A stretch of 64,000 nt of DNA from an uncultured Nitrososphaerales archaeon (GCA_963709405.1 CAVPXM010000055.1:320001-384000), one strand, 5' to 3'. Shown: positions 16,471 through 58,984, counted from the stretch's first letter. The notes: generated by a model not told the origin, from the sequence alone. Translations and numbers: made by a program.

Positions 16471-16541
16471 TGATATTTAGTAATGATGGTAAGGGTGATA
16501 AGCATCATATAGTGCAAAGTTTCTGGATTCATTAGGTAATT
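16471..16541 (+). repeat. 71-bp imperfect direct repeat, left copy
   Basis: Aligns ungapped with 33324-33394, about 10 mismatches by manual count. Confidence 0.85.
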
Positions 16542-16758
16542 ATCCGTTATCATGATAATTCGTCATATTAAAGAGTAAAATGATACTGTAATTCCTTTAT
16601 TTACTACCGCTGTCTATTTCATTTTATTATCAGTACAGGAGATGTAGCATAGTGATTACTGTGGAAGCAACTTGCTTTTTTGACCGTTCCTTAGTAGGAA
16701 ATACAATTAGATGGTTAAAACAGGTGTGCCTTGCAGTTTTTCAAATAGCTATTTTGTT

Positions 16759-16935
16759 GTTATTTTGTCTGCAACGATAGAACAAATCAACAAAATTACA
16801 ATGTAATGAATTGTACCCTTTGTAAATAAATAGCAGAGTTGACCCGTGTTTAAAAATGGATCAAATTAATTCTGGAGAAAGGGTGAGAGGGAAATGACGA
16901 GTACCAGCAAGAAACAGAATGGGACAATTACAGGA
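16759..16935 (+). repeat. Promoter/RBS/start cassette, copy 1 (177 bp)
   Basis: Near-identical to 31158-31334 and in part to 21502-21620; contains ATTACA-A-TGTAAT, TTTAAAAA, GGGTGAGAGGG, ATG at 16894. Confidence 0.93.
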
Positions 16936-17076
16936 GAGACGACGGGCCAGTCATCAATGGAGTCGCTTGGCGGAGCCAAGAAACTTGACAAAAACGACCC
17001 CAAATTTCAAGTTGGTATGCTAGCAATGAAAACCGAAGCAGGCAGGACAACAAATCACGCCGCTTCATCAACGTAG
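16894..17076 (+). pseudogene. Mosaic 60-aa leader ORF, probable deletion remnant of a paralog of the 21607 gene
   Basis: Starts at the cassette ATG; cttgacaaaaacgacccc (LDKNDP) at 16984-17001 is identical to 21973-21990. Confidence 0.6.
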
Positions 17077-17090
17077 AAAGAGAAGACAGT

Positions 17091-18919
17091 ATGTTCTACA
17101 GTAACGGTAACTACGAAGCATTCATTCGTCCCCGCAAGCCGCAGGGCGTGGACGAGAAGTCTGCCTATCTCATCGGCGGTGGCATCGCCTCGCTCGCGGC
17201 GGCGGGCTTTTTGATCCGCGACGGGCAGATGGATGGCAAACGCATCACCATCTACGAGGCGAGCAATATCGCCGGCGGCTGCCTGGACGGCATCAAGGAC
17301 CCAAAGGAGGGCTACCTCTTCCGCGGCGAGCGCGAGATGGAGGACCACTACGAGTGCCTGTGGGATCTGATGCGCTCGATCCCGTCGCTCGATGTCGAGG
17401 ACGCCTCGGTCCTTGAAGACTTTTACCAGGTCAACAAGGACCACCCCAACTACTCCCTGTGCCGGACCACTCACAAGCGCGGGCAGCCCTTCCCGACCGA
17501 CGGCAAGATGCTCCTGACCCCCAAGGCGCAGGGCGAGCTGATGAAGCTCTTCTACACCCGCAGAAGAGAGCTATTCGACAGGCGGTTCGAGGAATTCGTG
17601 AGCGAGGAGTTCTTCACCAGCAACTTCTGGGTGTATTGGCTGTCGATGTTCGCTATCGGGCCCTGGCACGGCGCCCTGGAGATGAAGCTCTACATGAACC
17701 GCTTCGTCCAGCACTTCGGTGGGATGACGGATCTCAGCACTATCAAGTTCACTCGCCTCAACCAGTTCGACTCGCTGGTCCTCCCGCTAGTCAAGTGGCT
17801 CGAGCAGCAAGGCGTCACGATTGTGTACGACACGAAGGTCACCAACGTCGTGTTCGACATCACCCCGGAACGCAAGGTCGCTCGCCGGATCGAGTGGATT
17901 CAAGGCGGAAAGCGCGGAGGACGCGACGTCACTAAGAACGACCTCGTCCTCATTACCAACGGCTCTGCGGTCGAAAACACCTCGTGGGGGGACCACCACA
18001 CCCCGGCCAAGTGGATCAGGGACATCCAGGAGGGCAGCATCTGGGCGATGTGGCGCAACATCGCCGCCCAGGACGCCGCCTTCGGTCAGCCCGACAAGTT
18101 CTGTACCCACACCGACAAGAGCAGCTATGAGTCGGCATGCATCATCACCCTCGACGACAAGATTCCGCCCTACATCGAGCGGATCTGCCAGCGCGACCCG
18201 TACAGTTTCGACTCGAGCCCCATCACCGGTGGCTTGGTGACCGTGCGCGATTCCAATTGGATCCTGTCGTGGAACGTCGAGCGCAACCCGCACTTCAGGA
18301 ACGCGCCGAAGGACCAGCTGATGATCCACGCCTACGGCACGTACAGCCTCGACCGGCCCGGCAACTACGTCACGAAGGCGATGCGTGAGTGCACCGGCGA
18401 GGAGATCGCCCGGGAATGGCTCTACCACCTGGGGGTGCCGGACGATCAGATCAACCAGCTGGCGGCCAAGTCGGTGAACGTGCATCCGTGCATGATGCCC
18501 TACATCACGGCCTTCTTCTTGCCCCGGCGTGACGGCGACCGTCCCAAGGTGGTGCCCGAGGGAGCGGTCAACTTCGGGTTCCTGGGGCAGCTCGCCGAGA
18601 GCCACCCGCGGGACGTCATCTTCACCGTCGAATACTCGGTGCGGACGGCGATGGAGGCGGTCTACACCCTGCTGGACATCGAGCGGGGCGTGCCGGAGCC
18701 GTGGGGCTCGCAGTACGACATTCGTGCGCTGCTCAACTCGGCGATCGTGCTGCGGGATGGCGAGAAGCTAAAGCTGCCCCCCATGCTCGAGGCTACGTGT
18801 TGAACACCGAAATCGGCGAGCTGTTGAGGGACTACGGGTTAATCGGCGAACTCGGCGACAACGAGCTCACGGTCGCGATACACAAGAACCCTCCGCGGGT
18901 GACTCGCACGGTCCTTTAG
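17091..18919 (+). CDS. Oleate hydratase (myosin-cross-reactive antigen family); frameshift near 18790
   Basis: MFYSNGNYEAF, GGGIAS FAD motif, RGEREMEDH, FTVEYSVRTAMEAVY; family-type C-terminus (TEIGELLRDYGLI) in ORF ending 18919; GC-rich. Confidence 0.93.
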
Positions 18920-19193
18920 AGACTAGTGGAGAGACGGAATGGACAGGGAACTTCTATGTTTACAAGATCGGGCTGGTTCGGCTCTTAGCGGAGGACCGGG
19001 AGCGGGTTTACGCGCGTGCTCCAGTCCTCCTTTGCCTTCAGCGGACGGCGCACCTTGGAAAGAGTTCGAGTCCAATTGGTCGCCTCCCCAACGCCAAAGT
19101 TCCGTTTCTCTTCTGACGAAGTATCGCCCGCAATCGTTCGAGACTAGCCCGGATCGATGGGATGTGAAAAGAGCGGATATCGGAACGCTGGGC

Positions 19194-19280
19194 TATAGCG
19201 TTTTCGAGCGAAGTGGGTACCCGGTTCCCGTGACGAGATAGAGAACGCGTCAAAGCAAATGCATAGAGCCTCGGCTCTAG
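19194..19280 (+). repeat. Rhizobiales-type intergenic palindromic repeat element
   Basis: TATAGCGTTTTCGAGCGAAGTGGGTACCCGGTTCCCGT...AACGCGTCAAAGCAAATGCATAGAGC resembles Bradyrhizobium/Brucella-type repeats as recalled; ends in a TAGAGCC-TC-GGCTCTA hairpin. Confidence 0.65.
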
Positions 19281-19293
19281 GGAAAACGGAGGA

Positions 19294-19545
19294 ATGCGAT
19301 TGAACGAGAGGTTGACAAAGTGGGCGGCAGCCGCTGTGCTGTCGATTGTCGCCGCTGCGCCGGCGCTTGGCGGCTCCGTCACGCGTCAGGGTGACACAGC
19401 TGGCCTTGCGGTGGGAATGCCGCTCCCTCCAGGCTTCTATTTGCAGAATCAACTGACCGAGGATTACGTGGTCACAAGCCCGCATGACACGTCTGTCCTA
19501 GACGATGTCCCCGTCTTGGTTTGGTCGACCCCCTGGACGATTTAG
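19294..19545 (+). pseudogene. 5' fragment of an SphA/phenol-MetA-type outer-membrane protein
   Basis: GGAGGA SD, signal peptide, GDTAGLAVGMPLPPGFY motif; truncated where GC-rich DNA ends. Confidence 0.6.
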
Positions 19546-19686
19546 CTGAGCGAGCGCGCTTTGCACTAGCAAAATATGCATTAGATACTAAGCCCTCTTT
19601 GTCTACCCAGTCTCCTACTACATAGAATTGTCTGTCCCCCCTGACCCCCCCCACAGGTTTTAATATTAAATATTTTCGTATATATT

Positions 19687-20628
19687 ATGAAAGCCGGAAT
19701 ATTCTTACCGCAATCTGGAGACTCTGCGACAAGAGATAACGTTCTCTATATTGCAAATGAGGCTGAAAGGGAAGGCTTTAAATCTGTTTGGGTAATGGAG
19801 CGACTTTTGTGGCCAATGAAGCCCCAGTCACCATATCCTGGAACACCTGATGGTTCTCTTCCGGTTGAATACCAAAATGTACTTGACCCACTGGAGACGC
19901 TTACCTACTTGGCAGGCAATACCAATCAAATTTCTTTAGGAACTTGTATAATTGATATGCTGTTTCATAATCCATTAGTATTAGCAAGGCGATTTGCAAC
20001 ACTCGACATCCTGTCGCAGGGAAGGGCTATTGCAGGTCTAGGAATCGGATGGTCAAAAGATGAGTATGAAGCTTCAGGTATACCTTACAAATACAGAGGA
20101 GAAAGGGCAAATGAATATTTGCAAGTGCTAAAACGAATTTGGACCGATGAGGTAGTCGAATTTAAAGGTCACTTCTACTCGATACCAGCTTCAAAAATTG
20201 GGCCTAAGCCTGTGCAGAAGCCTCATCCCCCAATACTGCTAGGTGGATTCAGTCCAAAGACATTCTTACGAATAGTAAACTATGCGGATGGTTGGATATC
20301 TGTTGCCGGATTTGGACCATTGAAACAGCTTGAACAGGCTATAAACGGCTTAAGAGAAGGCGCAAGAAAAGCCGACAAAGACCCTTCAAAGATTCGTGTA
20401 GTTATGTTGACGTATCCGAATGTGCTAGACTCCTCCTCCTCAAATTCCTCCTCAGAGCCACAGAGATTGCCCATGACTGGTACCATTGACCAAATTGGAA
20501 CTGACATTGATCAAATCAAAGCGATGGGCGTAGAGCATATAATATTCGGCCATTTCTTATCTCCAACAGGCAAGGATATGAAGAAGATGATCGAGATAAC
20601 GAAACAGCTTGCTAAATTTGCTAAATAA
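19687..20628 (+). CDS. LLM-class (probably F420-dependent) oxidoreductase
   Basis: DPLETLTYLA, LARRFATLDILSQGR, GPKPVQKPHPPILLGG, YADGW; host-like AT content. Confidence 0.9.
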   Translation: MKAGIFLPQSGDSATRDNVLYIANEAEREGFKSVWVMERLLWPMKPQSPYPGTPDGSLPVEYQNVLDPLETLTYLAGNTNQISLGTCIIDMLFHNPLVLARRFATLDILSQGRAIAGLGIGWSKDEYEASGIPYKYRGERANEYLQVLKRIWTDEVVEFKGHFYSIPASKIGPKPVQKPHPPILLGGFSPKTFLRIVNYADGWISVAGFGPLKQLEQAINGLREGARKADKDPSKIRVVMLTYPNVLDSSSSNSSSEPQRLPMTGTIDQIGTDIDQIKAMGVEHIIFGHFLSPTGKDMKKMIEITKQLAKFAK

Positions 20629-20843
20629 AAATGGAGGCTACTATAGTAAATTTATGAGAGGCTCTCGTGATTGCTACGTCATCGGTTTTTGTGAAACTAT
20701 ATCTGTTTTTTGAGATCTCCATTTTCCAATGTTATCGTATTTATCGTATTGCATTTCTCACACTTGGCACAAGAGTCAGTTATATTCCAAAAAGCGTAGG
20801 GAGTAAGAGAATTTAATTCACCGTATTTCTTACACGAATTATA

Positions 20844-21074
20844 CTACTTCCAATGCAATTCTCTGAGTACAAAATTTCCACTCTCTTCTTTCTCACCCTT
20901 ATATATACCCAGCATATTATTCAAAAAAGATAGTTTCCCAGTAGAATTTATGCTATATGCTGATGCCCCTTGATAGTCTGTAAAATTTCTTACATCTATG
21001 GAACTATAGTTTGCCGTCTCACTCCCATCCTTGGTCGTTATTACTCCATCCTTGGTCGTGCTTAGATGGAGCAT
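20844..21074 (-). pseudogene. Fragment of a small secreted beta-protein
   Basis: TTKDGVITTKDGSETANY with a short tandem duplication; no intact N-terminus. Confidence 0.4.
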
Positions 21075-21501
21075 GCCATTTGGTTTTGTTATCTACCTGT
21101 CTCCAGTATTCAAGTATTCTGTGATCCATATTGTAGTAATAGTTGGTAGCTGCCGATAGGTCCTCGTGTGAATCTGAAACTATTCTTGTTTTTTAAGTTC
21201 TCCGTTCTTGAGGGCTATCGTAGTTGTCCGGTCTTATAGCATGTAGTTATTTCTAATATATGAGTGCTTAAGAATATTCGACCACATTATATAGATATGA
21301 AAACAATCGCATGGGCACGATTCTGTATATCTATACAGATTCAAAACATAACAATCCTCTCTGTAGGGTGACACCTATAGAGAACCTAGAATCTCTTCCC
21401 CAATACGATAAGGGAAAATATAAAGAAATGATACTTGATGCTACTACAACAGTTTACAATTTTTTTGGCTTTGATAGGACCATTTATAGCAATTTCAAGA
21501 G

Positions 21502-21620
21502 AACAAAATTACAATGTAATGAATTGTACCCTTTGTAAATAAATAGCAGAGTTGACCCGTGTTCAAAAATGAATCAAATTAATTCTGGAGAAAGGGTGAG
21601 AGGGAAATGACGAGTTCCAG
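21502..21620 (+). repeat. Promoter/RBS/start cassette, copy 2 (~119 bp)
   Basis: Near-identical to 16789-16907; its ATG (21607) is the start of the 204-aa gene. Confidence 0.93.
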
Positions 21621-22221
21621 TAACGTTACCAAAAAGTCAGGTAAGGGCAACAACCACGGCTTTGTCTCGGAGGTGAGCGCATACATGACCGTCAAGCCGG
21701 GTCACGAGGAGGAGGCGCGAGCGGCTTGTCGCCGCTTCGGCGACATGCTGCGTAACTCCGACCCGAAGGCTGTACAGAAGACTGGTCTGCGCGACGCGCG
21801 GTTGGTGGTCTTCGATGACGGTCGACGACTTATGTTCGCCTCTGGCTTCGAGACCGAATGGGACCCATACGTCGACGATGCCATTCTGATCGTTGGCATC
21901 GAACACTTTCTGGACTGGATGCAGCATACCGTAGAGGCAGAAGAACTTGTGGCATCGGTGAAGTCGCTTAACCTTGACAAAAACGACCCCGATTTGGATG
22001 AGAAAGTGAAGCCGGCCGGCGCCAAACTCAAGGCGGTCATCCAGTCGATTCAGACCCCAGCGACCGCCTACTTCAATGCACTGAGCGATCTTACGGTGCC
22101 ACAGATAAAGAAGGCCCAGCGCCTCCAACAGGCCTTCCAGCAGGTGCTCGACGACCCAGCCGCCCAGGATGCACTCAAACACCCGGCCCTGAAGCCGCTG
22201 CTAGAGCAGGCGGCCGACTGA
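21607..22221 (+). CDS. Hypothetical protein, first gene of DyP operon (possible dimeric alpha/beta barrel)
   Basis: 204 aa, GC-rich codons, VKPGHEE...ARLVVFDDGRRLMFASGFETEWDPYVDD. Confidence 0.75.
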   Translation: MTSSSNVTKKSGKGNNHGFVSEVSAYMTVKPGHEEEARAACRRFGDMLRNSDPKAVQKTGLRDARLVVFDDGRRLMFASGFETEWDPYVDDAILIVGIEHFLDWMQHTVEAEELVASVKSLNLDKNDPDLDEKVKPAGAKLKAVIQSIQTPATAYFNALSDLTVPQIKKAQRLQQAFQQVLDDPAAQDALKHPALKPLLEQAAD

Positions 22222-22252
22222 CCTGGGTACCCGTAGGTAGTAAGATAGAACC

Positions 22253-23433
22253 ATGTCAGACCATTTCTCTGGACCCCGGGCGATAGCGGGTCCGGCCGGC
22301 GACATCACTGATCTCTATGTGTTCCCCAGCCCTGAGCGCCCGGGCCATCTTGTGCTCGTGCTGGACGTGCAGCCAGACGCCCCCCATGACTCGTACTTTT
22401 CAGATGCGATCGTCTATCGCTTCCGGCTGCGGCCACTCACCATTTCGGGCGTAGGGGCAGCCGCAGCCTTTCCCTTCGCCGGCGAGGACAAAGAGATAGT
22501 CTTCAGCTGCCACTTCGAGGCTCCGCGGCAAGGCGGAGCTGGAGTGGCGCCTGTGCAGGAAGGTTGGTGTGAGACGCCGTCGGGTGAGACGACACGCTTC
22601 CGCGTTCACGAGGAGAGGGGCGCGAGCAGCGATGGCCTGCGCGTCTTTGCCGGCCTCAGAGCGGAACCATTCTTCTTCGATGTGCAGGCCCTCATAGAGT
22701 CGCAAAAGACTGGGCGGCTTGCCTTCAAGGAGGTCGGGACCAATGCCGCGATCGGCTTCAACGTTCTGAGCATCGTCGTCGAGGCTGACTGTCGGCCGTG
22801 GCTGCGCAGCGGCAGCGGGCCACTGCTAGCGGTGGTCGGCGAGACGGTGGTCGCCGGCAAGCTCCCGATCCGGATCGAGCGAATAGGCCGCCCAGAGATC
22901 AAGAACGTGATCTTGCAGTTGAAGCAGTTTGACCAGGTCAATCGCGACATGGAGCTGCGCGATCTCTACAACCTCGAAGACGCCTTCCACATGAGCAAGG
23001 ACTATGGTGGCGCCTACCGTGCCGGTTGAACGCCAACCTGGCCTTCAACGATCGCCTTGACGGTAAGACGGACTGGCAGCTCGGCCCGGATGGCGCCCAC
23101 CCCCTGACCGAGCTGCTACTCGCCGACTATCTAGTCGTCGACGTCTCACGGCCGTACGCCGCCGACAGCTTCTTTGAGATCGAGCAGGCGACTCTCGATG
23201 GGCACGCCCACCAAACGTGTGGTGGCCGGTCGCTGAACGACGACGTGATGGACAAGCTGCTCACACTGCTCGTTAACGGCGGCAAAGGACCGCGCGTGAG
23301 TGACGGCGTGGACCGGCCGGCAACCCCGGTCTCGGACGTCTTCCCCTACCTAGGCGCCGCCAACTCATCAGCCGCGGGCCAAGCAAGGACTGGGCCTTGC
23401 AATCGGCCAAGCAAGCAAGTAAGGAGACTATGA
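22253..23433 (+). CDS. DUF4331-like protein (frameshift near 23020)
   Basis: MSDHFSGP..DITDLYVF, FAGLRAEPFFFD, ERIGRP, GGRSLNDDVMD, FPYLG across two ORFs. Confidence 0.75.
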
Positions 23434-24759
23434 CCGCTAAGTCGACCGTCGCGCTGGAGCTTGACGACATCCAGGCCGGCGCCCTAGAGCCGCGGCCGGT
23501 TCCTTACGCGGGTATATACCAGATCCTGCGTCTTGACGACCGGCATGCAGGGCGTGAGCTGCTGCGGCGGCTAATCCCGTATCTCGACTCGGTTGCCTCC
23601 TTCGATCCCAAAACGCCGGTGTCGCTCGCCGTGGCACTCAGCTTCCAGGGTCTCAAAGCCCTCGGGGTACCGGAGGAGTCACTTGCCAGCTTCCCACCCG
23701 AGTTCCAGCAGGGAATGGCCGCACGAGCGGCCGAGCTTGGGGACGTGGGGGAGAACGCTCCCGAGCACTGGGAGAAACCGCTGGGTTCGCAGGACGGCCA
23801 TCTCGTGGTGGTCGGGCTCGCGCCCGACACTGCCCGCCTGGAGGCCGCTTTCCGCTACGCCCGCGACGCCCTACGCGATCTGTCCGGCGTCGTGCCCATC
23901 TGGCAACAGGACGTACACGCCGCGGCTGACCTGCGCAACATGTTCGGTTTCGCGGACGGCATCGCCCATCCGGCCGTCGAGGGTACTGGCATTCCCGGCA
24001 CCAATCCGTACGAAGTGCCGCTCAAGGCGGGCGAGTTCGTCCTGGGGTACGAGGATGAGACCCACAACCTCCCCCCCGTACCGCAGCCCGAGGTGCTGGG
24101 CCGCAACGGCACCTACGCGGTCTTCCGCAAGCTGCACACGCGCGTAGCCGCCTTCCGCCAGTACCTGCGCCAGCACGCCAAGGACCGCGCCGAGGAGGAG
24201 TGGCTGGCCGCCAAGATCGTCGGGCGCTGGCCGCAGCGGCGCGCCGCTGGCACTGACTCCGGACAAGGACGATCCCGAACTTGGGGCCGACCCGAAACGC
24301 AACAACGCCTTCATGTTCGGCGACGACCCGCATGGCCTCAAGTCCCCGATCGGCGCGCATGTCCGACGGATGAACCCCCGCGACTCGGTCGTCATTGGCG
24401 AAGTGCGCTTGCACCGCATGATCAGGCGCGGCACCAACTATGGCCCGCCGCTGCCCCCGGACGTCCTGGAGGACGACGGCGCCGACCGCGGCCTCATATT
24501 CGCCTTTGTCGGGGCGCACCTTGACCGGCAGTTCGAGTTCATCCAGAGGGAGTGGGTAAACGACGGCAAGTTCATCGGCGCACCGGCCGAAAAGGACCCG
24601 CTGGTGGGCAGTAACGATGGCCGTGAATTCACCATCCCGAAGCAGCCAATCCGCCGCCACCTCAAGGGACTGCCCGCTTTCGTCGTCAATCGCGGCGGCG
24701 AATACTGCTTCATGCCCGGCCTGCGGGCGCTGCGCTGGCTCGCCGATCTCGACACTTGA
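23430..24759 (+). CDS. Dyp-type peroxidase (frameshift near 24235)
   Basis: LDDIQ, FGFADGIAHP (GxxDG), NGTYAVFRKL, GAHVRRMNPR, IRRGTNYG, QFEFIQ, GGEYCFMP; ATGA overlap with the upstream gene. Confidence 0.9.
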
Positions 24760-25044
24760 GCCAGGGCGCAGGAGGAATGGCACCTGATATGACAGCCGAG
24801 CTATGCGTCTGGGAATCTTAATTTTAGGAATCTTAGAAATGTTGGGATAACAGTGTAGTTCTTTCTCACGAGCAATATAGCGGATCCCGCTTCGGCTTCG
24901 GTCGCCAAGAAGGGTAAAAGCGTTTCTAGTTTTATTTTTGTGGTTATTCCTGCAAGCCTTGCAACTTTATATTCTCACGAGAAGGTAAGAGGTAGGGATA
25001 CTAGGCGACTTGATAGAACCAGCAGAAGCCGAGGATGTCTTTGG

Positions 25045-25590
25045 AACCTTAAGCCAGTAAACCTGAAAATTCATAGCTCGATCTAGAGATTATGAAATGT
25101 TTTTGATATCGAATCCCAGAATGCTAGTTGGGATACATTGCAAAAGAAACTTTACTATCCAAAAAACTGTGGCAAGACTAGAAAAGATGATGATAGAAAA
25201 CAATATTTTGCAATTTACTATTTTTACAGACCCATCTTCTACGAATTAACAGGGTTTATCAAATTCGGAGTGTATTAAGTTGATGCACTTTATCATCAAA
25301 ATATAGTTCAGAGAATATAGAATGAAATGCAAGAATATATACTGCATCCAGTTGATGATGTAGAATAATACCAAATCAACTGTTTAATTGTCTATCCAAA
25401 GGAACTTGTTATTGCATCTTTCTGTTGTGCAAACATATCTACAGTCAACTTAATATTGAGAAGACTAGAATCATATGAAGGGGTTAACAAAAGTCGAATC
25501 AATAACAGTAACTAGCGAAACCAGAATTTATCGGGACTGGTTAAGGAGTGATATTGACAGAAGGTTAACATCTAGTCAAAAGCATTTATG
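25045..25590 (+). pseudogene. Decayed paralog of the Lrp/AsnC regulator at 27330
   Basis: Nucleotide similarity to 27770-28250 (gagattatgaaatgttt, tagaaaagatga, tatgaagg, gactggttaagga) with stops and indels. Confidence 0.7.
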
Positions 25591-25904
25591 ATCGTTAATA
25601 TCATTAATATCCTGAGCACCGCTGTCTTTTCGAAGAGTTAGTTTACTTGTTACCTGACTCAGTAGGCTGACTAGCCATGCGAAAAGCCATTATTGCCTAC
25701 ATTAGCAGGCAACATTAACAGGGTTTATCGAACTGACTGCAGAGCTCAAAACTACCACTTGGCTTAAGATATATACTATATTGTCTTTTTTGGACTACTG
25801 TTTTTTAACTCAACGCATTAAAAATCGGACAGATACTACAAAAAGTATACCAAAATTACTGGTTGACTTGCACCAAGCCTAAATCAATACTGGAGTATTG
25901 ATAT

Positions 25905-26174
25905 ATGGACTATTCGTATATGGCATTACTTAACCATAGCAGGTATTCACTACCAAAGTCACTCAATTGGCTGAGGGCAGTACAAATAGGCTTTGGAGCT
26001 TTAACTATTGTTACATCTATATTCGCTCTAGCGTTTCCAGGCTCCACCTACATTTCGGTAGTTTGGGTACTTGCTCTAGTACTGTTCTTCGTTGGAATAG
26101 AAGAAATCATCGTCGGAATTTTTTCACGTAGAGAGCCAGTCAGAGGAAGATATGCAGAAACTCCTGGCCTCTGA
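25905..26174 (+). pseudogene. N-terminal fragment of DUF308/HdeD-like membrane protein
   Basis: WLRAVQIGFG...FPG...VGIEEII, two TMs, then abrupt end. Confidence 0.55.
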
Positions 26175-26338
26175 TCTTCAATATTCCGTAATTGGTGCAA
26201 TCTTTGCTAATGAATCACAAAGAAAATAAACATGAACCAAGCAAACAACCATCCGAGGATTATCATGCTGGAGACAATTGTCATTTACACAATGAGGTGA
26301 TATATTGCAAATAAAACCAGCACAAGGAGTGTGTAAAA

Positions 26339-26869
26339 GTGAAAGTGCTACTTTTAGATTTGACTTCTGAAACTATGAAAAGTTTACGACAGGAAGCCAA
26401 GCAAAAAGATATCAGCACTAATACCTTGTTAAACCAAATAGTAAAAGAACATTTAAGATGGCATGCTAACGCATCTAATGCCGGTTTTATCGCAGTCAAT
26501 AGACTCTTTATTACAAGCTTGATAAGTCATTTATCAGAGCAAGATATTATTTCTATAACAGAACATGTAGCCAAGAACACAACCAAAGACACAATATTGC
26601 TTTTAGAAAATGAATATACAATGAAATCAGCGCTAGACTTTATAGAAAACTGGATAAAAATATCTGGTTATAAATATAAACATCATGAAATTAATGATGG
26701 CCAAAATAGGCATATGTATGTAATACAACATGACATGGGAATTAAATGGTCTATTTATTTGGCTAATATATACCAATTCTTATTTGATGAGGTAAAGGAA
26801 GACAATAAAAGAAGAGCAAAATTTGAAAAAACCGAAAATACATTAGCATTTACAGTTGATGTCGACTAA
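26339..26869 (+). CDS. Conserved hypothetical protein with RHH-like N-terminus
   Basis: LRQEAKQKDISTNTLLNQIV; IQHDMGIKWS motif. Confidence 0.7.
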   Translation: MKVLLLDLTSETMKSLRQEAKQKDISTNTLLNQIVKEHLRWHANASNAGFIAVNRLFITSLISHLSEQDIISITEHVAKNTTKDTILLLENEYTMKSALDFIENWIKISGYKYKHHEINDGQNRHMYVIQHDMGIKWSIYLANIYQFLFDEVKEDNKRRAKFEKTENTLAFTVDVD

Positions 26870-27268
26870 TACGTTAGAGTAGTGTAAGTTTCGACACTAG
26901 TCCATCATCGTTTTGTGTTGTAGCCATAATTATTAGCCTAAATTTAGTATTTAGAGTCTAGTCATTTAGGAAAGTCGGGGCAACAATCTTCAAATGCATA
27001 GACAAAAAGAATATTGTAGATATAGGCCAACACTGATTCATTCTGGAGGATCCGTGCATGATTATATTCACATTAGAATTGTTCTTATCGAATTACTTCT
27101 GCACAAGGGACACCTAGAACACATTTTATTATTAATCAGATGTAGACCTGGAGCAAGATAACGAGAAAGCACACCCGAAGTACGCTCACATATTTAAAAA
27201 TGCTTTTGTTTGTTATGGATATTTTCGTAGCTATAGATATTAAAACAAATAAAAAAATCATGTAGCGG

Positions 27269-27303
27269 GGATAATTTTCGCAAAATTATCCGAAAAGTAT
27301 ATG
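27269..27303 (+). promoter_or_regulatory. Operator palindrome next to BRE/TATA of the Lrp gene
   Basis: GGATAATTTT-CGC-AAAATTATCC (27269-27291) followed by GAAAAGTATATG. Confidence 0.6.
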
Positions 27304-27329
27304 ACGACCGCAAATATTACTAATATTTA

Positions 27330-28302
27330 TTGCAACAAGCGATAGTAGATGATATTGATTTACAAATTATAAGGTTACTTGTTAGTGACTGTAGAACAGG
27401 TTACACTGATATTGCTTCTGCAGTTGGAATATCTACAAATGCTGCAAAAGTAAGGACTAACAAAATGATTTCAAATGGCGTGATACAAGGTTTTAGAGTA
27501 CTTGTAAATCCAGCAACATTTGGATATGAGAAATTATTATTTTTAATAGCTAATAATATTGATAAAACAATTAAAGAACAAGACCTATTCAAAAAGATAC
27601 GTCTTTTAGGGGAGGTTTTTGCATATGCCAGGCACTTTGAAAGCGCTAGTATTTTTGTACTATTTGCTAAGGATATATCGCAGGACAAAATAGATATATT
27701 GGGTGATTTACTAAAGCCAGCAACAGTAGAGTCTATCTTTGGCAACTATAGACCACCAACCATGACTGTTAATGATTCTGATTTGGAGATTATGAAATGT
27801 TTATTGTCAGATCCTAGAATGTCGGGTAAAGATCTAGCCCAGCAAACTTCACTTTCACATAAGACGGTAGCAAGAAGATTAGAAAAGATGAGAGAAAACA
27901 ATGTTTTACAATTCTTTACAATTAAAGCAAACCTGGCTTCTCTTAGATTAGTAGGTTACATTGAATTTCCAGCATTAATTTATGTCAGGGAGCCAAGTTA
28001 CCAAAGCATAGTTGAAAGAATATACCAGGAATTACAAGAATATTTATTCTTGCTATCTAGTACCTCGATATTGGGATCAAAAGAGATTCATTTTTGCAGT
28101 ATTCTTTGCTTCGAACATTTCCATCGTCAACTTGGTATTAGGAAGGTTGCGATCCTATGAAGGAATTACCAAAGTTGAATCATTTATAACAACTAATGTG
28201 TCATATCATCTAGACTGGTTAAGGATCGAGATGGACAAAAGGTTAGCAGCTGGTAAGAAGTATTTATTATCATCAACATATGCTGCAGCTAAAGATTCGT
28301 GA
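27330..28302 (+). CDS. Lrp/AsnC-family regulator with two HTH modules (frameshift near 28060)
   Basis: DDIDLQII...YTDIASAVGIS and DLEIMKCLLSDPRMSGKDLAQ..VARRLEKM; C-terminus in ORF 28012-28302. Confidence 0.8.
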
Positions 28303-29269
28303 TTATTCGTTCCAATTCAATAGCACATCAAGGCCTATGTCATTTATCGTATATCCTTGATTTTGCCCAATTTAAGAAATTAGTCAATTAAATAAAACAA
28401 ATATTTCTTTTAGTAGGTCAGGCGACGATAAAGGCATTACTCGCATTATATCATCAAGTATAGATCTTCTAGTACATAATAACAAAACTATTGCTACTGT
28501 CTTCATTGCTACTTTGTGAACTAGAACAAGCATTGAATAGGATATGACAAACAAAAAAAGTTGGCACAGTATGCGAGAAGACGGATAGAAAACTATGATA
28601 AACTATTAAGAGAAGAAGAAGTTGATTCACAAAATAACTGCCAAAGTGTTTTGAGAATCTACTACTCTCCAATTCTTCTTTCCAACAACCTTATGTATTT
28701 GCTCTGTGCTATAATTACTTTAAACAATACGTCACCTGACTGTTTAATCCATCGATCAGTTTCTATTTGGTTAAGAGCCACATTAACAATGTTTTCGTTA
28801 CTTGATCTTTCCTTTATTTGGCGTGACCAAGCTTCCAACTCTGGAAACTGTGTCATCAAAAATTCTACCTTATGTCTTTTCTTATCTAATTCCTCGTCTG
28901 AACGCAGCCAGCGTGTCGAGGCTAAGATAACGAGAGAATGATCCTACAGCAGTAGTTGCGGTTGAGACATGGAGTCAACTGCACTTTGTTCTATAATAAT
29001 AGAATGATGTGGCACATTAATCTTCACCAATGAAGTAAATAGAGCTACATGGCTGATGGTATTTCGACGGGATTTATTTGAACGAAAGCTGATAGTATAG
29101 ATTTTCCGTAGGAAGAGATCTATGATATACGACTAGAACTATCAAGGCAAAGCATGCAAATTGATAAGTGGACGTTGTAAACCAGGTCGGAACTACCTGA
29201 CCTTCCTGCATATAAGAAGCCATATCTGAAGGTACGTCATTGTGGAGTTTGATGAAATTCCACAGGATC

Positions 29270-30710
29270 TCATTTCTGTTCAGATTCAAAGGTTTGGAGA
29301 CTGCCGCCGGTGGCGGCCAAACGTTTGAAGCCATCAAATGCAGCATATTTGTAGGCCATAGTATAGGTAGGTGTAGCAACTGTCAGGTTGTTAAACACGT
29401 CAATCGCGTCTGAATTGTAAAGCGTGGCCTGTCCAAGGGCGATGAGTTCTGACGCAATGTCGCCGAGGATATGGATTCCGAGTAAGCGGCGGTCTTGACG
29501 GCGGAATACCAGTTTCAGGATGCCATCCGTATCCCCAGAGATGAGTCCGCGGGGGATTTCTCCAAAACTGCAACGCCCGACTTCGTAATCGATCCCTTGC
29601 TCTTTGGCTTTATCTTCAGTTAATCCGACTCCCGCCAATTCCGGAACTGAATAAACTGCTGAGACAGATAATGGGTCTAACTTCACCTTGAATCCAAGGC
29701 CCAAGGCATGACAAGCCGCTACCCGGCCTTGCTCCGTCGAAACTGAGGCTAGCGAAGGACCAATTACATCGCCAGCAGCGTAAATCCCCTCAATACTAGT
29801 TTGAAAATGGTTGTCCACTTCAACCACTCCTCGAGGATTCAATTTTACCCCAGCTGCGTCAAAACATAGGCCTTCAGTGTCAACCAAGCGGCCGGTCGCA
29901 AACAGCGCCATGTCCGGTCCCAGCACTTCGCCGGTTTTCAAAGTGACCTGTAGCTCGCCATTGATCCGGCCGGCGGTGTGCACTCCTGTACCGAGCACAA
30001 TCCTCATCCCCTGTTTCTCAAAGGCCCTACGCAACAAATCCGACAGCTCACTATCCATGGTGCCTAACAGATGTTCTCCAGAGTGGACCACAGTCACGGG
30101 AATCCCATAGGCATTAAAAATTGAAGCAAACTCACATCCTATCGCCCCACCGCCAACGACCAGGGCGCTCTTAGGAACACGCTTAATCTTTGGCAGCTCT
30201 TCTGAATCGAAAATGTCGGGATCATCAAACGGGATGTTTGCTGGATGAAATGGGCGCGACCCTGTCGCAATCAGAATTTTTTCTGCCGTAAAGACGCGTT
30301 CCGTTTCTGAAACCTCGCGGGGGGTGACTATAACGGTGCGATTTGGGCCCAAACGCGCTGACCCATAGACGACATCTACTCCTAACTTGTCTACAAAAAA
30401 AGAGTGAGTAAAGTTCTGCATCGCAGAAGAAACTTCTTCTGTTCTTGCGCGCGAGCGCTTTACTGCCATAACTATATCAGGTTGCTCAGTAATTCCATAA
30501 AGGGCCCGATAACGAAAACCAGTAAGATGTAAGGTCTGCCTCACGGAGCGTCTTGGTTGGCCCTCCGCCCGTTGTGACCACAAGGCCGCCAAGGACTTCG
30601 CGCTCGATAACCAATGTGCGTCGCCCGGCGAATGCGGCAAACTCAGCCGCACCTTGTCCCGCTGGGCCACCACCAATGATAATTAGGTCGTAGTGCTGGA
30701 TGCCTGTCAT
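29270..30710 (-). CDS. Soluble pyridine-nucleotide transhydrogenase-like flavoprotein (frameshift near 30550)
   Basis: YDLIIIGGGPAG, ATGSRP, VGGGAIGCEFA, IYAAGDVIG; no redox CxxxxC; intermediate GC. Confidence 0.8.
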
Positions 30711-31157
30711 GGTTTCGTCTCTGTCACCAACTGCTTCTTGCACCATTTAGCATAAGGAATAGTCGCGAGATTAGTTATAATAAGATAAATCACAATCACA
30801 TCCGACACCACCTTGTACAGGTACTTTGATAGCCGCTCTAAGGATATGGTTCAGTCAGAGCCTCACTCTTGATTGAGTATGTTCACTTTGAACCTAGCCA
30901 ACATGCAGAATATGCTAGTGCTAGAAGATTTTCATATCGTCAGGGCCATAGAATGTATCGGATTATTTTATAGTTGTGATATTAGCTTGACCTTGACCTG
31001 TACTACTTTTTATTATATACTTCTTTGATGATGTAGACTACCACGTATAGAACTACAGTCTTTGGGGGAATAGTCATTAACCTGTATGACATAAGCGATC
31101 AAGTTAGGGAATATGGACTAGAGGCTATAGAAGGTATCAAGCGACAAAGTTAGCCTA

Positions 31158-31334
31158 GTTATTCTCTCTGCAGCGATAGAACAAATCAACAAAATTACAA
31201 TGTAATGAATTGTACCCTTTGTAAATAAATAGCAGAGTTGACGTGTGTTTAAAAATGAATCAAATTAATTCTAAAGAAAGAGTGAGAGGGAAATGACGAG
31301 TACCAGCAAGAAACAGAATGGGACAATTACAGGA
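31158..31334 (+). repeat. Promoter/RBS/start cassette, copy 3 (177 bp)
   Basis: Near-identical to 16759-16935; ATG at 31293. Confidence 0.93.
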
Positions 31335-31346
31335 CAGAAACTATGA
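31293..31346 (+). CDS. 17-aa leader peptide MTSTSKKQNGTITGQKL overlapping the oleate hydratase start
   Basis: Cassette ATG; TGA 31344-31346 overlaps ATG 31343 (ATGA). Confidence 0.5.
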   Translation: MTSTSKKQNGTITGQKL

Positions 31347-33058
31347 GAAACTATTACTGTGTCAACACCCTGCCGCCTGCGGGTATCGACAAGAAGAACG
31401 CCCACATCGTGGGTGGCGGGATCGCCGGCCTGGCCGTGGCGGTCTTCCTGGTCGACGATGCACACATGCCCGGGGACAGGATCACCGTCTACGAGCAGCT
31501 CCCCGTCACCGGTGGAGCGTTAGACGGCGCCGGTGACCATCAAACCGGCTACACCGCCCGGGGAGATCGTGAGCAACATGAATCGATGGACTGCCTGTGG
31601 TATTTGTGCGCCAAGATTCCCTCGGTAGCGAGCCCCGGCATGACGATCCTCGACGAGACCTACGAGTCGAACGTGCAAGAGCCCATCAACGCCAAGTTCA
31701 GATTGATGGCAAACCGGGGTCAGCAGTATTCCGCGGGCGAAGAGCTTATGTCGGATGAGGACCGACGCAGGATGATCAAGTTGTGGCTCACGCCAGAGGA
31801 GAAGCTGGAGAACCAAACCCTGGCCGACTGGTTTACCCCTGAGTTCTTCAGCAAATCTGCATTTTGGCACTACTGGTCTAGCATGTACGCGTTTTGGCCG
31901 GATCACGCGCTGATCGAGGGCCGGCGCTACCTGCTGCGCTACTCCGAGATCAACCCTGCGAACCTACACGGGATCCTGCACTACAAATACAATCAGTACG
32001 ACTCGGTGGCCAAGCCGATACACGTCTGGCTGGAGCGCCATGGCGTGCGATTCCGCACCGGGACGACCGTCACCGACATCGAGACCGCAGACAAGGACGG
32101 AGAGACCCTCGCCACGGGTCTGAAGTTCCGCGACGCCGACGGCGAGCACCATCTCAGACTCGCCCGTGATGATCTGGTGTTCTTCACCAACGGTTCCTTG
32201 GTGCAGAACTCCACTCACGGCGACACCAAGACCGTGACCAAGTTTGACCGCAACACCGCCGACCGGGGCTGCTTCACAGTGTGGGAGAAAATGGCGGCGC
32301 GCAATCCGAAGTTCGGCAAACCCGACGTGTTCCTCTCCAACGTGGATAGAAGCGGGTGGATTTCGTACTACGTGACGATCAAGGGCGACGCCACGTTCTT
32401 CGACTACATGGAGGCCAAGACCGGCAACGCACCCAACACTGGTGGTCTGACCGCGATCGTCGACTCCTCGTGGAGGCTGAACTTCGCCCTTTTCAGCAAG
32501 ACCTTCCTCGATCAACCCGACGCCGTGCAAACGCTTCAGGGCTACGCCCAGATCATGACCAAACCCGGATCCTACATCAAAAAGCTGATGCCGGAATGCA
32601 CCGGCGCGGAGATCTTCGCTGAGTTGCTCTACCACTGCGGGCTAAAGGATGATCAGATCAAAAGCATCGTGTCGCACAGCATCGTGCATACCTTTGCCAT
32701 GCCGTATATCGTCGCCGAGTTCATGCCCCGGCGGGTCAGCGACCGTCCCAAGGTGATTCCGGACGGGTGCGTGAACCTGGCGTTCCTCGGCCAGTTCGCC
32801 GAAGTGCCCGGCGAGGTTGTGTTCACCACCGAATGCTCGGTGCGCAGCGCGATGATGGCGGTGTACGGTCTGACCGGCCTGAAGAAACCAATGATCCCGT
32901 TGCCCGAGCCCTACTTCGACGTCCGGGTGTTGGCCTTAAATCTCAAGATCATGGGCGGCAAGGAAAAGCTCACCCCTGAAGACCTGAGGGCCCTGCCGTT
33001 TACCGATGAAATCGTCTCGTTGATCAGCCAGGTCTTGAATTCCGCCGAGTTGCCCTAG
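31343..33058 (+). CDS. Oleate hydratase (MCRA family), divergent second copy
   Basis: GGGIAG, RGDREQ, KYNQYDS, NLAFLGQF, VFTTECSVRSAMMAVY; GC-rich. Confidence 0.9.
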   Translation: MRNYYCVNTLPPAGIDKKNAHIVGGGIAGLAVAVFLVDDAHMPGDRITVYEQLPVTGGALDGAGDHQTGYTARGDREQHESMDCLWYLCAKIPSVASPGMTILDETYESNVQEPINAKFRLMANRGQQYSAGEELMSDEDRRRMIKLWLTPEEKLENQTLADWFTPEFFSKSAFWHYWSSMYAFWPDHALIEGRRYLLRYSEINPANLHGILHYKYNQYDSVAKPIHVWLERHGVRFRTGTTVTDIETADKDGETLATGLKFRDADGEHHLRLARDDLVFFTNGSLVQNSTHGDTKTVTKFDRNTADRGCFTVWEKMAARNPKFGKPDVFLSNVDRSGWISYYVTIKGDATFFDYMEAKTGNAPNTGGLTAIVDSSWRLNFALFSKTFLDQPDAVQTLQGYAQIMTKPGSYIKKLMPECTGAEIFAELLYHCGLKDDQIKSIVSHSIVHTFAMPYIVAEFMPRRVSDRPKVIPDGCVNLAFLGQFAEVPGEVVFTTECSVRSAMMAVYGLTGLKKPMIPLPEPYFDVRVLALNLKIMGGKEKLTPEDLRALPFTDEIVSLISQVLNSAELP

Positions 33059-33323: not shown

Positions 33324-33394
33324 TAATATTTGGTAATGTTGGTAAGGATCATAAGCATGGTGTAGTGCAAGGTTTCTGGATTCATTAGGCAATT
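33324..33394 (+). repeat. 71-bp imperfect direct repeat, right copy
   Basis: Aligns with 16471-16541. Confidence 0.85.
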
Positions 33395-33926
33395 CTCGAT
33401 ATATCTCAATCATACTATTGGTAGAGATATCGCCAAACTATTTCAAAAGCCAGATGTACTCTGGCTAGTTTAAGCCAGCTGTGCTTCTGGATAGACCGAT
33501 AGTATTATTTAGCAAAGATAATGCTTTGCTATGAGTAGTGTTGAATAGCATTATTCCATAAAAAAACCCAGTGATTATCGATAACTCTTCCTAGGTCGGA
33601 AGATATCCAAGTGATTTTTTGGCCATCGTTAGTCCCAAACGTTCCGTTTCCTCTCGCAAGGAGCAGTTTATCAGACAAGTGAGCAACTAAACAGATTAGA
33701 GAGAAGTTGCAGATATATGATGAACTGGAAGATTTACAGGAAAGAAGTGGAGGCGTTAACGCAGTAATCCTGATAGCATTGGGTACGTTGATTTGGTTAA
33801 TTTCATAGTTTTGATTTTTGGACTGTACAAGATAGCGAGAGGTACTCATGATTCCTTTATTTGGAAGAATATAGGCAAATACGTACCTAATATAAGAACT
33901 CAATAATAGTTTGGCAACCGGACCAT

Positions 33927-34109
33927 ATAGGTGTAGGTGTGTTAAATATTATAATAGCTACATTTGTACTGGTATCGCCCTTATTTCGAGTGATTCTTGG
34001 AGCGATTCTGATAGGAATGGCGTTGCTAATAGTGGGAATACAGATGATTACATCAGGCGTAATGGGAAGGCGACAACAGATTAATTCAAAAACAACTTTT
34101 GGACCATAG
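33927..34109 (+). pseudogene. C-terminal fragment of DUF308/HdeD-like membrane protein
   Basis: Manual translation IGVGVLNIIIATFVLVSPLF...ALLIVGIQMITSGVMGR, stop at 34107-34109, no start. Confidence 0.5.
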
Positions 34110-35027: not shown

Positions 35028-35400
35028 CTACTCAGATATAATAGATGAGAATAGGTTAATAATTATTTGAGGCTTGGACAGGATGTGATATCGATAGCGG
35101 AGGAATTGGCTTAGGCTAGTGGTATTGCTCGTGGGTAAATATGGCGGCAAAGGTGGATTCGCAGTAGGCGGCTCTGGATTTGGTAACGGATAATTAGCAA
35201 GTATCCTTGCCTTGATTATACAGGCATTCATCTGTATCAACTTCGTAGACGGTTGGTCTTTCGTACTGTGACATGGACGGCACAATAGCTGCATATTTCT
35301 GACTATTGAATTGCCTGATAATGCCCGCGGGACAATGTGATCTACACTTAGTTCGCTATCAAGAAAGTATTAATGACAATAAGCACATCGAGGACATGCA
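35028..35400 (-). pseudogene. HNH endonuclease remnant
   Basis: Manual translation RCAYCH*YFLDSELSVDHIVPRALSGNSIVRNMQLLCRPCHSTK with in-frame stop. Confidence 0.7.
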
Positions 35401-35612: not shown

Positions 35613-36634
35613 AGCTTGTTGCATAAATCATTTTATTCCTTCGTACATTATCTATACCTCTCTACATCATGGTAGCAAACATGTTATACAATGACGCTTT
35701 TAGGATCAATTCCTTGGCCATATTCTGAAACTTTCTTGCAGTTACATACTCGCCAAACGTTCTTTTGATAGACGAGAATACCGTTTCTGCCATCCACCTT
35801 TGTCCATAGCTCACGCTATGTTTCCATCTTTTGAGATTTGTTTGTTGTCTCATTACAGACCTATTCCTTGCTTGACAGTTGCCTGTCTTGACCTTGGAAT
35901 TACTTCTTGTCTTTATACCAGGTTTAATATGGTTCTTGGATAGATATCTAAAATTCTTATTACTGTCATACATACCATCTGCTAACGCACCCTTTACATT
36001 GTTATTTGCAGAAGCATTATCAATCAACTTCTTTAGCATCTTGCCATCGTGTACTTCTTCACTAGTAACCTCCAAAGAAATAATCTTCTTATTCTTGATG
36101 TTTACTGCTACATGTATTTTCAGATAACCTCTTCTTACGTGCCATTTATGTCGTATCCATTCACCTCTATTAGCAACTTTGATTCCTGTACTATCTAATG
36201 CTATAATGATGTCCTCATCATCATTACCTACTTCATGCCGTTCGCTGATTCTGATATCCTGGTTATTAATACGTCTGTTAATTGTACTGTAGTTTGGAAT
36301 AGATGGTATCTTCTTATTACCAGCATGAGCTATGACTATGCCTTCTGCTTGCCGGTATGGCAGATGAAAATATACCCTCATGTAACCTAGTAATTGGATA
36401 AACGAATCAGGATAGTGGTACTGTGCACCCCTCTTTCCATCATTCATTAAGTCCAACTCACTATACCAACTATCTATGACATCAAAATCTAGAATAACTT
36501 CACCTCGCCTAACTAGCGATTTGTTATAAAAAGACCAGTTAATCATGTCCAACAATAATCTCATTACATGTTAGCTAAATCTCAATTGGTCAACAAACTC
36601 ATAGCGATATGATAATGATTTGTGCAACAAAGCA
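35613..36634 (-). mobile_element. IS5-family (IS903-like) insertion sequence
   Basis: TIRs GCTTGTTGCATAAATCATT / AATGATTTGTGCAACAAAGC; 8-bp TSD GATTCTTT at 35605-35612 and 36635-36642. Confidence 0.9.
35662..36564 (-). CDS. IS5-family DDE transposase
   Basis: NWSFYNKSLVRRG, DSTGIK, KIHVAV, ADGMYD, YGQRWMAETVFSSIK. Confidence 0.93.
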   Translation of the reverse strand: MRLLLDMINWSFYNKSLVRRGEVILDFDVIDSWYSELDLMNDGKRGAQYHYPDSFIQLLGYMRVYFHLPYRQAEGIVIAHAGNKKIPSIPNYSTINRRINNQDIRISERHEVGNDDEDIIIALDSTGIKVANRGEWIRHKWHVRRGYLKIHVAVNIKNKKIISLEVTSEEVHDGKMLKKLIDNASANNNVKGALADGMYDSNKNFRYLSKNHIKPGIKTRSNSKVKTGNCQARNRSVMRQQTNLKRWKHSVSYGQRWMAETVFSSIKRTFGEYVTARKFQNMAKELILKASLYNMFATMM

Positions 36635-58044: not shown

Positions 58045-58984
58045 GTGAATCCATATAGAAATCAGAATAAGGTTTAATCTAATACACGAAAAAGAATGGA
58101 CTGGTGATACCATATGTAATATTTGTAAGAGATATGGTGTATCCAGAAAGACTTACTACAAGTGGAATAATAGATACAAGCAGAAAGGGATAGAAGGCCT
58201 ATCAGATAACTCCAGAAGGCCTCATAAAATCAACTACAGGAAGGTAACACCAGAAGTAGAAGAGACTATACTTGATCTACGATTAACTAAGAGATTTGGA
58301 TGTAATAGGATCAAATTTCGACTAAAAAGAATCATTGGAATCTCATTAAGCACCCGAACTATATACAAGATACTAAAGACACATTGTCTTAATATCCTCA
58401 TGTGTAAGGCCAAAGCAAGAACTTACAAACGGTTTGTCATGAAGCATCCAAATGATATGGTGCAAGTGGATATCCTTGGCCCTTTCTATCTGAGTAATTC
58501 CAGTCAAAGGAATTACATCATTAGTTGCTTAGATGATTGTTCTAGGAAGGTAGCTAGCAAGTGGTCCGAAAGAAAGAGGTCAGTGGATGTTCTTAATGTA
58601 TTAGAGGACTGGATAATGATTAATGGTAAGCCTAAGATGATGATGCATGATAACGGTAAACAGTTTACATCCAGAATATTCAGACATTTCCTTATACATA
58701 ATCAGATAAAAGATAAGCAAATACCAAAATCATACCCGCAGTTACAGGGAAAAGTAGAAGCATATAACAAGATTGTAAAGAGTGAATTCATAGCATTAGA
58801 AGATATACCAAACATAGACGATGGTAAACAAAGATACGACATGTTTGTTAAAGCATATAACGAAACCAGAGAACATGGAGGCATAAATGGTCTTACTCCA
58901 TCGGAGATGTTCCTACAAAGGTTAATTACATCCAGTACACATACGAGAACTAAACAGAAAAGTGTAACCCATGTAGGTAATTGA
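58045..58984 (+). CDS. IS481-family transposase (start disrupted by an indel)
   Basis: HTH (ICKRYGVSRKTYYKW) in frame with rve core QVDI, LDDCSR, HDNGKQF, GKVE. Confidence 0.85.

Follow-up and report, generated by a model that had tools for sequence, protein, structure and literature searches.

Promoter reuse within one genome has been described in the form of putative mobile promoters (PMPs), which share at least 80% identity over at least 50 nt upstream of different genes (PMC3575422). PMPs are not associated with any known mobile element and have been proposed to rewire regulation (Nijveen, Matus-Garcia and van Passel 2012, PMC3575422). Silent or acquired genes can also be activated when a promoter is captured through duplication or recombination, for which that paper cites examples such as E. 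coli citrate and Lactococcus ldh (via PMC3575422). In this work, we analyzed a stretch of 64,000 nucleotides from an uncultured Nitrososphaerales archaeon (GCA_963709405.1 CAVPXM010000055.1:320001-384000, one strand; hereafter, the window), in which an AT-rich repeat, referred to below as the cassette, stands in front of three blocks of G+C-rich genes of bacterial type. We consider it reasonably probable that this repeat is the head of one horizontally acquired operon that has been used three times, and that it consists of P, the AT-rich and host-like upstream part of the repeat (105-135 nt), together with the native first 17 nt of a gene that we call ORF204. The head is intact in locus 2, where it leads ORF204, a DUF4331 gene and a gene for a DyP-like peroxidase, and in loci 1 and 3 only a remnant of the ORF204 homologue is left, with a common deletion junction, and an oleate hydratase gene follows it. 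The features of the three loci are as follows.

16759-16893 (+): P copy 1, AT-rich upstream region with 0.33 G+C, located by repeat search, self-BLAST and motif positions
16894-17076 (+): upstream open reading frame (ORF) of locus 1, 60 codons, beginning with the ORF204-type first 17 nt and continuing with scrambled ORF204-homologue remnants
17091-18803 (+): oleate hydratase 1 (MCRA family), 570 aa, G+C 0.62, G+C at third codon positions (GC3) 0.88
18804-19560 (+): G+C-rich tail of block 1, no family match, holding the ORF 19294-19545
21502-21606 (+): P copy 2, the shortest copy, with TTCAAAAA in place of TTTAAAAA
21607-22221 (+): ORF204, a full-length member of an uncharacterised bacterial family, whose start is the ATG ACG AGT of the cassette
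22253-23433 (+): DUF4331 gene, in two frames in the assembly (22253-23029 and 23026-23433)
23430-24759 (+): DyP-like peroxidase gene, with one frame change near 24235 and AAGGAG just 5' of the ATG
31158-31292 (+): P copy 3, with the 5' boundary of copy 1 and five copy-specific substitutions
31293-31346 (+): upstream ORF of locus 3, 17 codons, with the ORF204 head and the deletion junction of copy 1
31343-33058 (+): oleate hydratase 2 (MCRA family), 571 aa

The identity that defines PMPs is exceeded by P, since the 105 nt before the ATG are identical at 103 positions between copies 1 and 2 and at 99 positions both between copies 1 and 3 and between copies 2 and 3. PMPs are also expected to precede non-paralogous genes, and in the window the main cargo differs (a hydratase gene versus the ORF204 operon), yet the ORF204 head is common to all three copies, copies 1 and 3 contain ORF204 remnants, and the hydratases are related to each other. 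Unlike PMPs, the unit in the window reaches into the first codons of a foreign gene, and short upstream ORFs are left behind; in addition, the host is probably an archaeon and the cargo bacterial, and two of the three cargo genes are distant paralogues. Overall, the case fits promoter reuse as described for PMPs, and may be regarded as an ordinary kind of promoter reuse with a twist. As in the promoter-capture cases, in the form in which that paper cites them, an existing active promoter would have been set before another gene by local rearrangement. Those cases were observed in experiments, whereas the event in the window is deduced from sequence and would have taken place at least twice.

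Engineered cassettes of the "bicistronic design" type achieve translational coupling through a leader cistron. Loci 1 and 3 resemble such cassettes in that a short frame with an established start ends on the start of the following gene or just before it, so that the upstream stop either overlaps the downstream start (ATGA in locus 3) or closely precedes it (by 14 nt in locus 1). Unlike in the engineered design, the leader in the window is natural and would have arisen by accident as a gene remnant, and the coupling is putative.

The repeated upstream region and the head of the ORF204 operon

A previous reading of the window from its sequence only had reported the AT-rich sequence in three places, each with the same start codons, and this repeat proved to be real; its copies are 93-97% alike, which is not expected by chance. 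Both the repeat search and self-BLAST gave 94.5% identity over 181 nt between copy 1 (16759-16939) and copy 3 (31158-31338). In self-BLAST, copy 2 (21502-21623) was 96.7% identical over 122 nt to the corresponding part of copy 1 (16789-16910) and 93.4% identical to that of copy 3 (31188-31309), and 4-8 substitutions separated the copies in these 122-nt alignments. A core of 49 nt is identical in all three copies and had no match in 100 shuffles. No fourth copy was detected in the window by nhmmer with the 122-nt core, which returned six matches, three of them real and the rest with E>3. Copy 2 is shorter at both ends than copies 1 and 3; its 5' homology begins at 21502, and upstream of this position its similarity to copies 1 and 3 was not above that of shuffles. 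Copies 1 and 3 have a common 5' boundary, and because the junction and the following 25 nt are exactly common to these two copies, copy 3 can be identified as the first 177 nt of a copy-1-type unit.

Homologues of ORF204 were found in 30 records of bacterial plasmids, and the best of them, from Streptomyces, was 52% identical. This homologue aligns with the N-terminus of ORF204 (MT...TKK.GKG), with 52% identity from residue 4, and its own ATG lies at the position aligned to the ORF204 ATG. Because the Streptomyces homologue begins alike and has its ATG at the aligned position, ATG ACG AGT is native to ORF204, and the ATG and first codons of the cassette can be identified as the native 5' end of this foreign gene. 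Therefore, the host-like DNA ends at or just before the ATG.

The leader of copy 1 was identical to ORF204 at 29 of 31 positions across the start, after which 226 nt are missing; beyond the gap, it contains ORF204-homologous blocks (16/21, 15/19 and 19/20 identities), partly in another frame and including an exact match of 18 nt. The local alignment of this remnant with ORF204 scored 43.5, a value reached by none of 1000 shuffles (17.8 ± 2.0, maximum 26), and other G+C-rich segments scored at most 31 against ORF204. Across the deletion junction and the remnant, copies 1 and 3 were identical at 25 of 25 positions. Past base 17, copies 1 and 3 and the rest of the 60-codon ORF are readily recognized as an internally deleted remnant of an ORF204 homologue. 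The segment of ORF204 that the remnant resembles best is one that is variable across the ORF204 family, and because of this the remnant suggests a paralogue of ORF204 within the same genome rather than a second import. Since the start belongs to ORF204 and copies 1 and 3 continue as an ORF204 remnant, the cassette is best described as an AT-rich upstream region plus a reused operon head, and not as a generic module or a capture site. The reusable module of promoter, ribosome-binding site and start proposed in the sequence-only reading thus stands in one part, namely the single upstream region shared by three foreign blocks, which would fit common regulation, and falls in the other, for the module is not free-standing but includes the start of ORF204 and its remnants.

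At every copy there is a change in G+C content, as that reading had claimed, and it goes from about 32% to about 60%. The P regions have a G+C content of 0.30-0.33 and the cargo genes of 0.58-0.68, and GC3 in the cargo (0.71-0.88) differs from that in 16 host-like genes (0.25-0.40). The absence of an adjacent integrase or transposase, also claimed there, was upheld by a family search of the ORFs and flanking frames; among the 25 main ORFs and 100 stop-to-stop frames of the flanks, none matched an integrase or recombinase family, and self-BLAST found no repeat at the 3' ends of the three cargo blocks. The nearest transposase gene, of the IS5 family (35662-36564, minus strand), is located 2.6 kb beyond block 3.

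The motifs listed in the sequence-only reading were present in all copies. The palindrome ATTACA-A-TGTAAT (6-1-6) starts at 16795, 21508 and 31194 and spans 16795-16807 in copy 1, in which three TGTA motifs begin at 16802, 16812 and 16821, with a spacing of 10 and 9 nt. The TATA-like octamer is TTTAAAAA in copies 1 and 3 (16849-16856 in copy 1) and TTCAAAAA in copy 2, owing to a T-to-C change. It begins 45 nt before the ATG, compared with 28-39 nt in four host-like genes that have a comparable box, and the palindrome and TGTA motifs sit 40-55 nt upstream of it. A G-rich run resembling a Shine-Dalgarno sequence is located at 16881-16891 in copy 1 and is weakened by G-to-A changes in copy 3, and ATG ACG AGT is found in all three copies (ATG at 31293 in copy 3).

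P was not flagged in a sigma-70 scan, and no terminal inverted repeats were found at the ends of the repeat unit. Across the whole window, no Rfam family reached its gathering score and no tRNA was detected; a SAM_alpha hit over the cassette on the opposite strand (16.4 versus 36 bits) was sub-threshold and was taken as chance. The cassette had no match in plasmid and phage collections searched in distant mode. The possibility raised earlier, that P is simply the native upstream region of these genes in a bacterial donor, was not borne out in a limited sample, as P was absent from all 13 fetched bacterial plasmid loci. When a 21-nt core was searched in 185,579 species-representative genomes, two exact stretches were found, in a Desulfobacula metagenome-assembled genome and a Lachnospiraceae isolate; neither showed similarity beyond the 21-mer, and they were regarded as chance.

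If the repeat is the reused head of an acquired operon, P would serve as promoter and operator, with the TATA-like box as part of the promoter and the palindrome and phased TGTA motifs as a putative regulator site, and all three blocks would be transcribed under one control, plausibly with unsaturated fatty acids or lipid peroxides as the signal. Translation would start from the ORF204 ATG, and in locus 2 this would yield ORF204 itself. In loci 1 and 3, the ORF204 remnants would be short leader reading frames yielding a short peptide, and ribosomes would stop on the hydratase start (ATGA, locus 3) or 14 nt before it (locus 1) and then re-initiate. The head may have been duplicated or recombined inside the foreign island, and P may have been kept near-identical by recent copying, gene conversion or selection.

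The cargo genes and their bacterial plasmid neighbourhoods

The two hydratases are only 37% identical to each other, and both can be assigned to the oleate hydratase family MCRA as full-length members. Both scored above the cut-off of the NCBIfam oleate hydratase model (NF010584; 776.9 bits for hydratase 1 and 572.8 bits for hydratase 2, cut-off 567), both matched Pfam MCRA (PF06100; E = 1e-191 and 4e-158) and oleate hydratases in the PDB (E = 1e-185 and 1e-123), and both ORFs are intact (570 and 571 codons). The upstream ORF of locus 1 has its stop at 17074-17076, 14 nt before the ATG of hydratase 1 at 17091, and in locus 3 the TGA of the upstream ORF overlaps the ATG of hydratase 2 (ATGA at 31343-31346). 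In the literature, oleate hydratase was not found together with the term Nitrososphaer-, and together with thaumarchae- there was only an unrelated co-mention.

In locus 2, the gene order is ORF204, DUF4331 and DyP-like. ORF204 matched no Pfam or NCBIfam family and, by sequence, no PDB entry below E=0.97; its structure predicted from the single sequence (pLDDT 48) was too poor for fold comparison, and a profile-profile comparison of the ORF204 and DyP families (probability 1%) showed no relation. The DyP-like gene misses the curated cut-offs (TIGR01413, 34.8 versus 100.5; Pfam DyP_N, 27.3 versus 27.5). Its two halves match the solved structure 8re3, "Peroxidase, putative" (1.6e-65 and 4.8e-34), and it is 71-82% identical to a Streptomyces homologue. 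It can be classed as a DyP relative, and as assembled it is not a certified member of the family. No mention of DUF4331 was found in the literature.

Single frame changes split four genes of the window, namely DUF4331 (near 23010-23030), the DyP-like gene (near 24235), a Pyr_redox/transhydrogenase-like gene and the host-like ELP3 gene. In the Pyr_redox gene (29270-30710, minus strand), the ATG at 30710 and the main ORF are in different frames and the break lies near 30540, and in ELP3 (62390-63998) the frame changes near 62830. A molybdopterin oxidoreductase gene (50748-52276) also appears to be split, judging by its Pfam coordinates. These breaks reflect either an indel-prone assembly or many pseudogenes; because host-like genes such as ELP3 are also broken, indel errors in the assembly are indicated.

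The sequence-only reading had called the cargo of the three blocks unrelated. On bacterial plasmids, however, ORF204 homologues, DyP and oleate hydratase recur together. Of the 30 records that contain an ORF204 homologue, we sampled 9, with 10 loci in total, which were picked to span genera and not at random. A DyP homologue adjoins the ORF204 homologue in 9 of these 10 loci, the exception being a second Streptomyces copy, and a catalase-family gene usually stands beside the pair. An oleate hydratase gene was present within the fetched flanks of 6-8 kb in four loci (Roseomonas, Brucella anthropi, Novosphingobium and Rhizobium); the Brucella anthropi and Rhizobium loci have identical proteins, which leaves three independent cases. 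The plasmid oleate hydratase gene is mostly accompanied by genes for TetR, a thioesterase and 3-hydroxyacyl-CoA dehydrogenase. One Streptomyces plasmid has the ORF204 homologue, DyP and DUF4331 in one row, in an order unlike that of the window. In the plasmid of Streptomyces sp. NBC_01562, the ORF204 homologue occurs twice, at a distance of about 9 kb and with identical match statistics, and only the second copy is followed by DyP and DUF4331. The linkage of ORF204/DyP with oleate hydratase is recurrent but not universal. The same gene families are grouped on these plasmids as in the window. On the plasmids, in contrast, the two operons are divergent or apart and have a TetR regulator, whereas the window has no TetR gene, has DUF4331 in place of the catalase-family gene, and carries P in front of all blocks. 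No description of a catalase-family/ORF204/DyP/oleate hydratase neighbourhood, or of a gene cluster of oleate hydratase and DyP-type peroxidase, was found in the literature.

The surroundings of the blocks contain further genes and fragments. The ORF 19294-19545 in the tail of block 1 has a hydrophobic N-terminus and ends at the G+C switch, and because it is cut there, it probably represents a donor gene that has been truncated. A GGAGG-ATG start, followed by only about 40 nt of G+C-rich sequence, is located about 20 nt past the DyP stop, at about 24776-24815, and at their 3' ends both blocks 1 and 2 seem to cut into further donor genes. Right after block 1, a gene of host-like composition (19687-20628) encodes an F420-dependent LLM-class oxidoreductase (TIGR03619, 224.8 bits versus a cut-off of 166.9). 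Between loci 2 and 3, the gene at 27330-28160 encodes a protein of 276 aa with two AsnC-type helix-turn-helix (HTH) domains, a candidate for regulation through the palindrome, and a fragment right after block 2 (24989-25216) is 38% identical to residues 120-195 of this protein. Small ORFs for DUF308 membrane proteins are located downstream of block 2 (25902-26171) and block 3 (33891-34106) and are 30% identical over 61 residues. A repeat of 72 nt, 86% identical, occurs at 16473-16544, upstream of cassette 1, and at 33326-33397, downstream of oleate hydratase 2; its frames are open on both strands, with minus-strand ORFs of 41-42 codons, and the repeat has no family match. About 2 kb past block 3 lies a fragment of an HNH endonuclease gene (35031-35369, minus strand), and transposase genes of IS481/IS3-like and IS1182/IS5-like types are found further on, within 58400-60112; none of them adjoins a cassette.

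Alternative explanations

Several points weigh against an operon head in use at all three loci. We infer promoter activity, co-regulation and translational coupling from the sequence arrangement. The signals of an archaeal host are weak, with ELP3 above its cut-off, TatC-Arch and WtpC as best models that remained sub-threshold, and a single Atlas neighbour (0.86) from Nitrososphaerota, and because the archaeal nature of the host is weakly supported, the type of promoter is uncertain. Of the three genes that follow copy 2, two have broken frames in the assembly, which would fit decay and not use. When plasmids were approached from the hydratase side, an ORF204/DyP neighbour was found in none of three oleate hydratase loci. 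Furthermore, P is identical at 103 of 105 positions between copies 1 and 2 and the adjoining remnant at 60 of 72 (Fisher p=4.6e-4), and because P is so much closer than the remnant, a simple single duplication would be insufficient unless constraint or gene conversion also acted. P may have been under constraint as the remnant decayed, or it may recently have been copied or converted from one head to another; the mismatches of the remnant lean to A/T (8 versus 2).

The frame breaks could also mean that the repeats are neutral by-products of segmental duplication and deletion in a decaying foreign island, with no role in expression and with cargo that is partly or wholly silent or dead. We consider this rather unlikely, although it would account for the broken frames of DUF4331, DyP and the nearby Pyr_redox gene, for the scrambled ORF204 remnants, and for other duplicated scraps near the loci (the 72-nt repeat at 16473 and 33326 and the AsnC-like fragment at 24989-25216). 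What it does not explain is that P is so much better kept than the remnant next to it, that two hydratase ORFs of 1.7 kb are intact, and that the upstream stop in locus 3 falls exactly on the hydratase start; the breaks themselves may be assembly errors, given that host-like genes such as ELP3 are broken too. If the assembly is at fault, it might be asked whether contigs of bacterial origin and an AT-rich genome were wrongly joined at a repeat common to both, as the sharp change in composition at the repeat and the several indel-type frame breaks in the window would allow. However, the copies differ by 4-8 substitutions in 122 nt, the repeat is found on the 5' sides only and the 3' junctions are unique, P abuts the native start of ORF204, and locus 1 holds a deleted ORF204 remnant whose A/T-leaning mismatches are not expected in a bacterial genome. 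Misassembly therefore appears unlikely, and we give it very little weight.

A similarly slim chance is assigned to P being a mobile promoter, that is, a non-autonomous element like a miniature inverted-repeat transposable element, or the end of an insertion sequence (IS) with an outward promoter, that jumped before silent foreign genes. Such elements are known to carry promoters (PMC3575422), IS elements occur in the window, and three near-identical copies precede different genes, but the unit ends without terminal inverted repeats, the boundaries of copy 2 are unlike those of copies 1 and 3, the unit continues into ORF204 coding sequence and remnants, no transposase is adjacent, and the window holds no further copy. 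The position of each copy exactly at the AT-to-GC switch had led the sequence-only reading to consider a recombination or capture site, and P might then be a preferred integration site for foreign DNA, like an integron with a promoter. This is the least probable of the explanations considered here: the 25 main ORFs and 100 flank frames contain no integrase or recombinase, the 3' ends of the cargo carry no repeat, the boundaries differ between copies, the switch in locus 2 is simply the native start of ORF204, and the cargo is not arbitrary.

An extension of the reused operon head can also be imagined, in which P and the ORF204-head leader form an actively propagating "domestication adaptor" of this probably archaeal lineage. 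There would then be many further genomic copies before other bacterial genes, each giving a promoter of the host, an operator for a single regulator and a leader cistron by which translation initiation is solved. Taken together, they would make up a regulon dedicated to acquired genes for lipid detoxification, in which the double-HTH Lrp/AsnC-type protein (27330-28160) is a candidate regulator. We regard this extension as a speculation with a small probability.

Possible wiring of acquired genes into the recipient

Read as an operon head that has been used three times, the window would provide a natural example of how freshly acquired genes of foreign composition are wired into a recipient. 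In this route, an upstream region and a start that are already in place would be copied, and the remnant of the first gene would become a leader reading frame. The link of the ORF204 family and DyP-type peroxidases to oleate hydratases suggests a shared role in dealing with fatty acids that are unsaturated or peroxidised. In the case of an ammonia-oxidising archaeal host, as assumed in the sequence-only reading, the three blocks would represent a bacterial lipid-stress kit in an archaeon.

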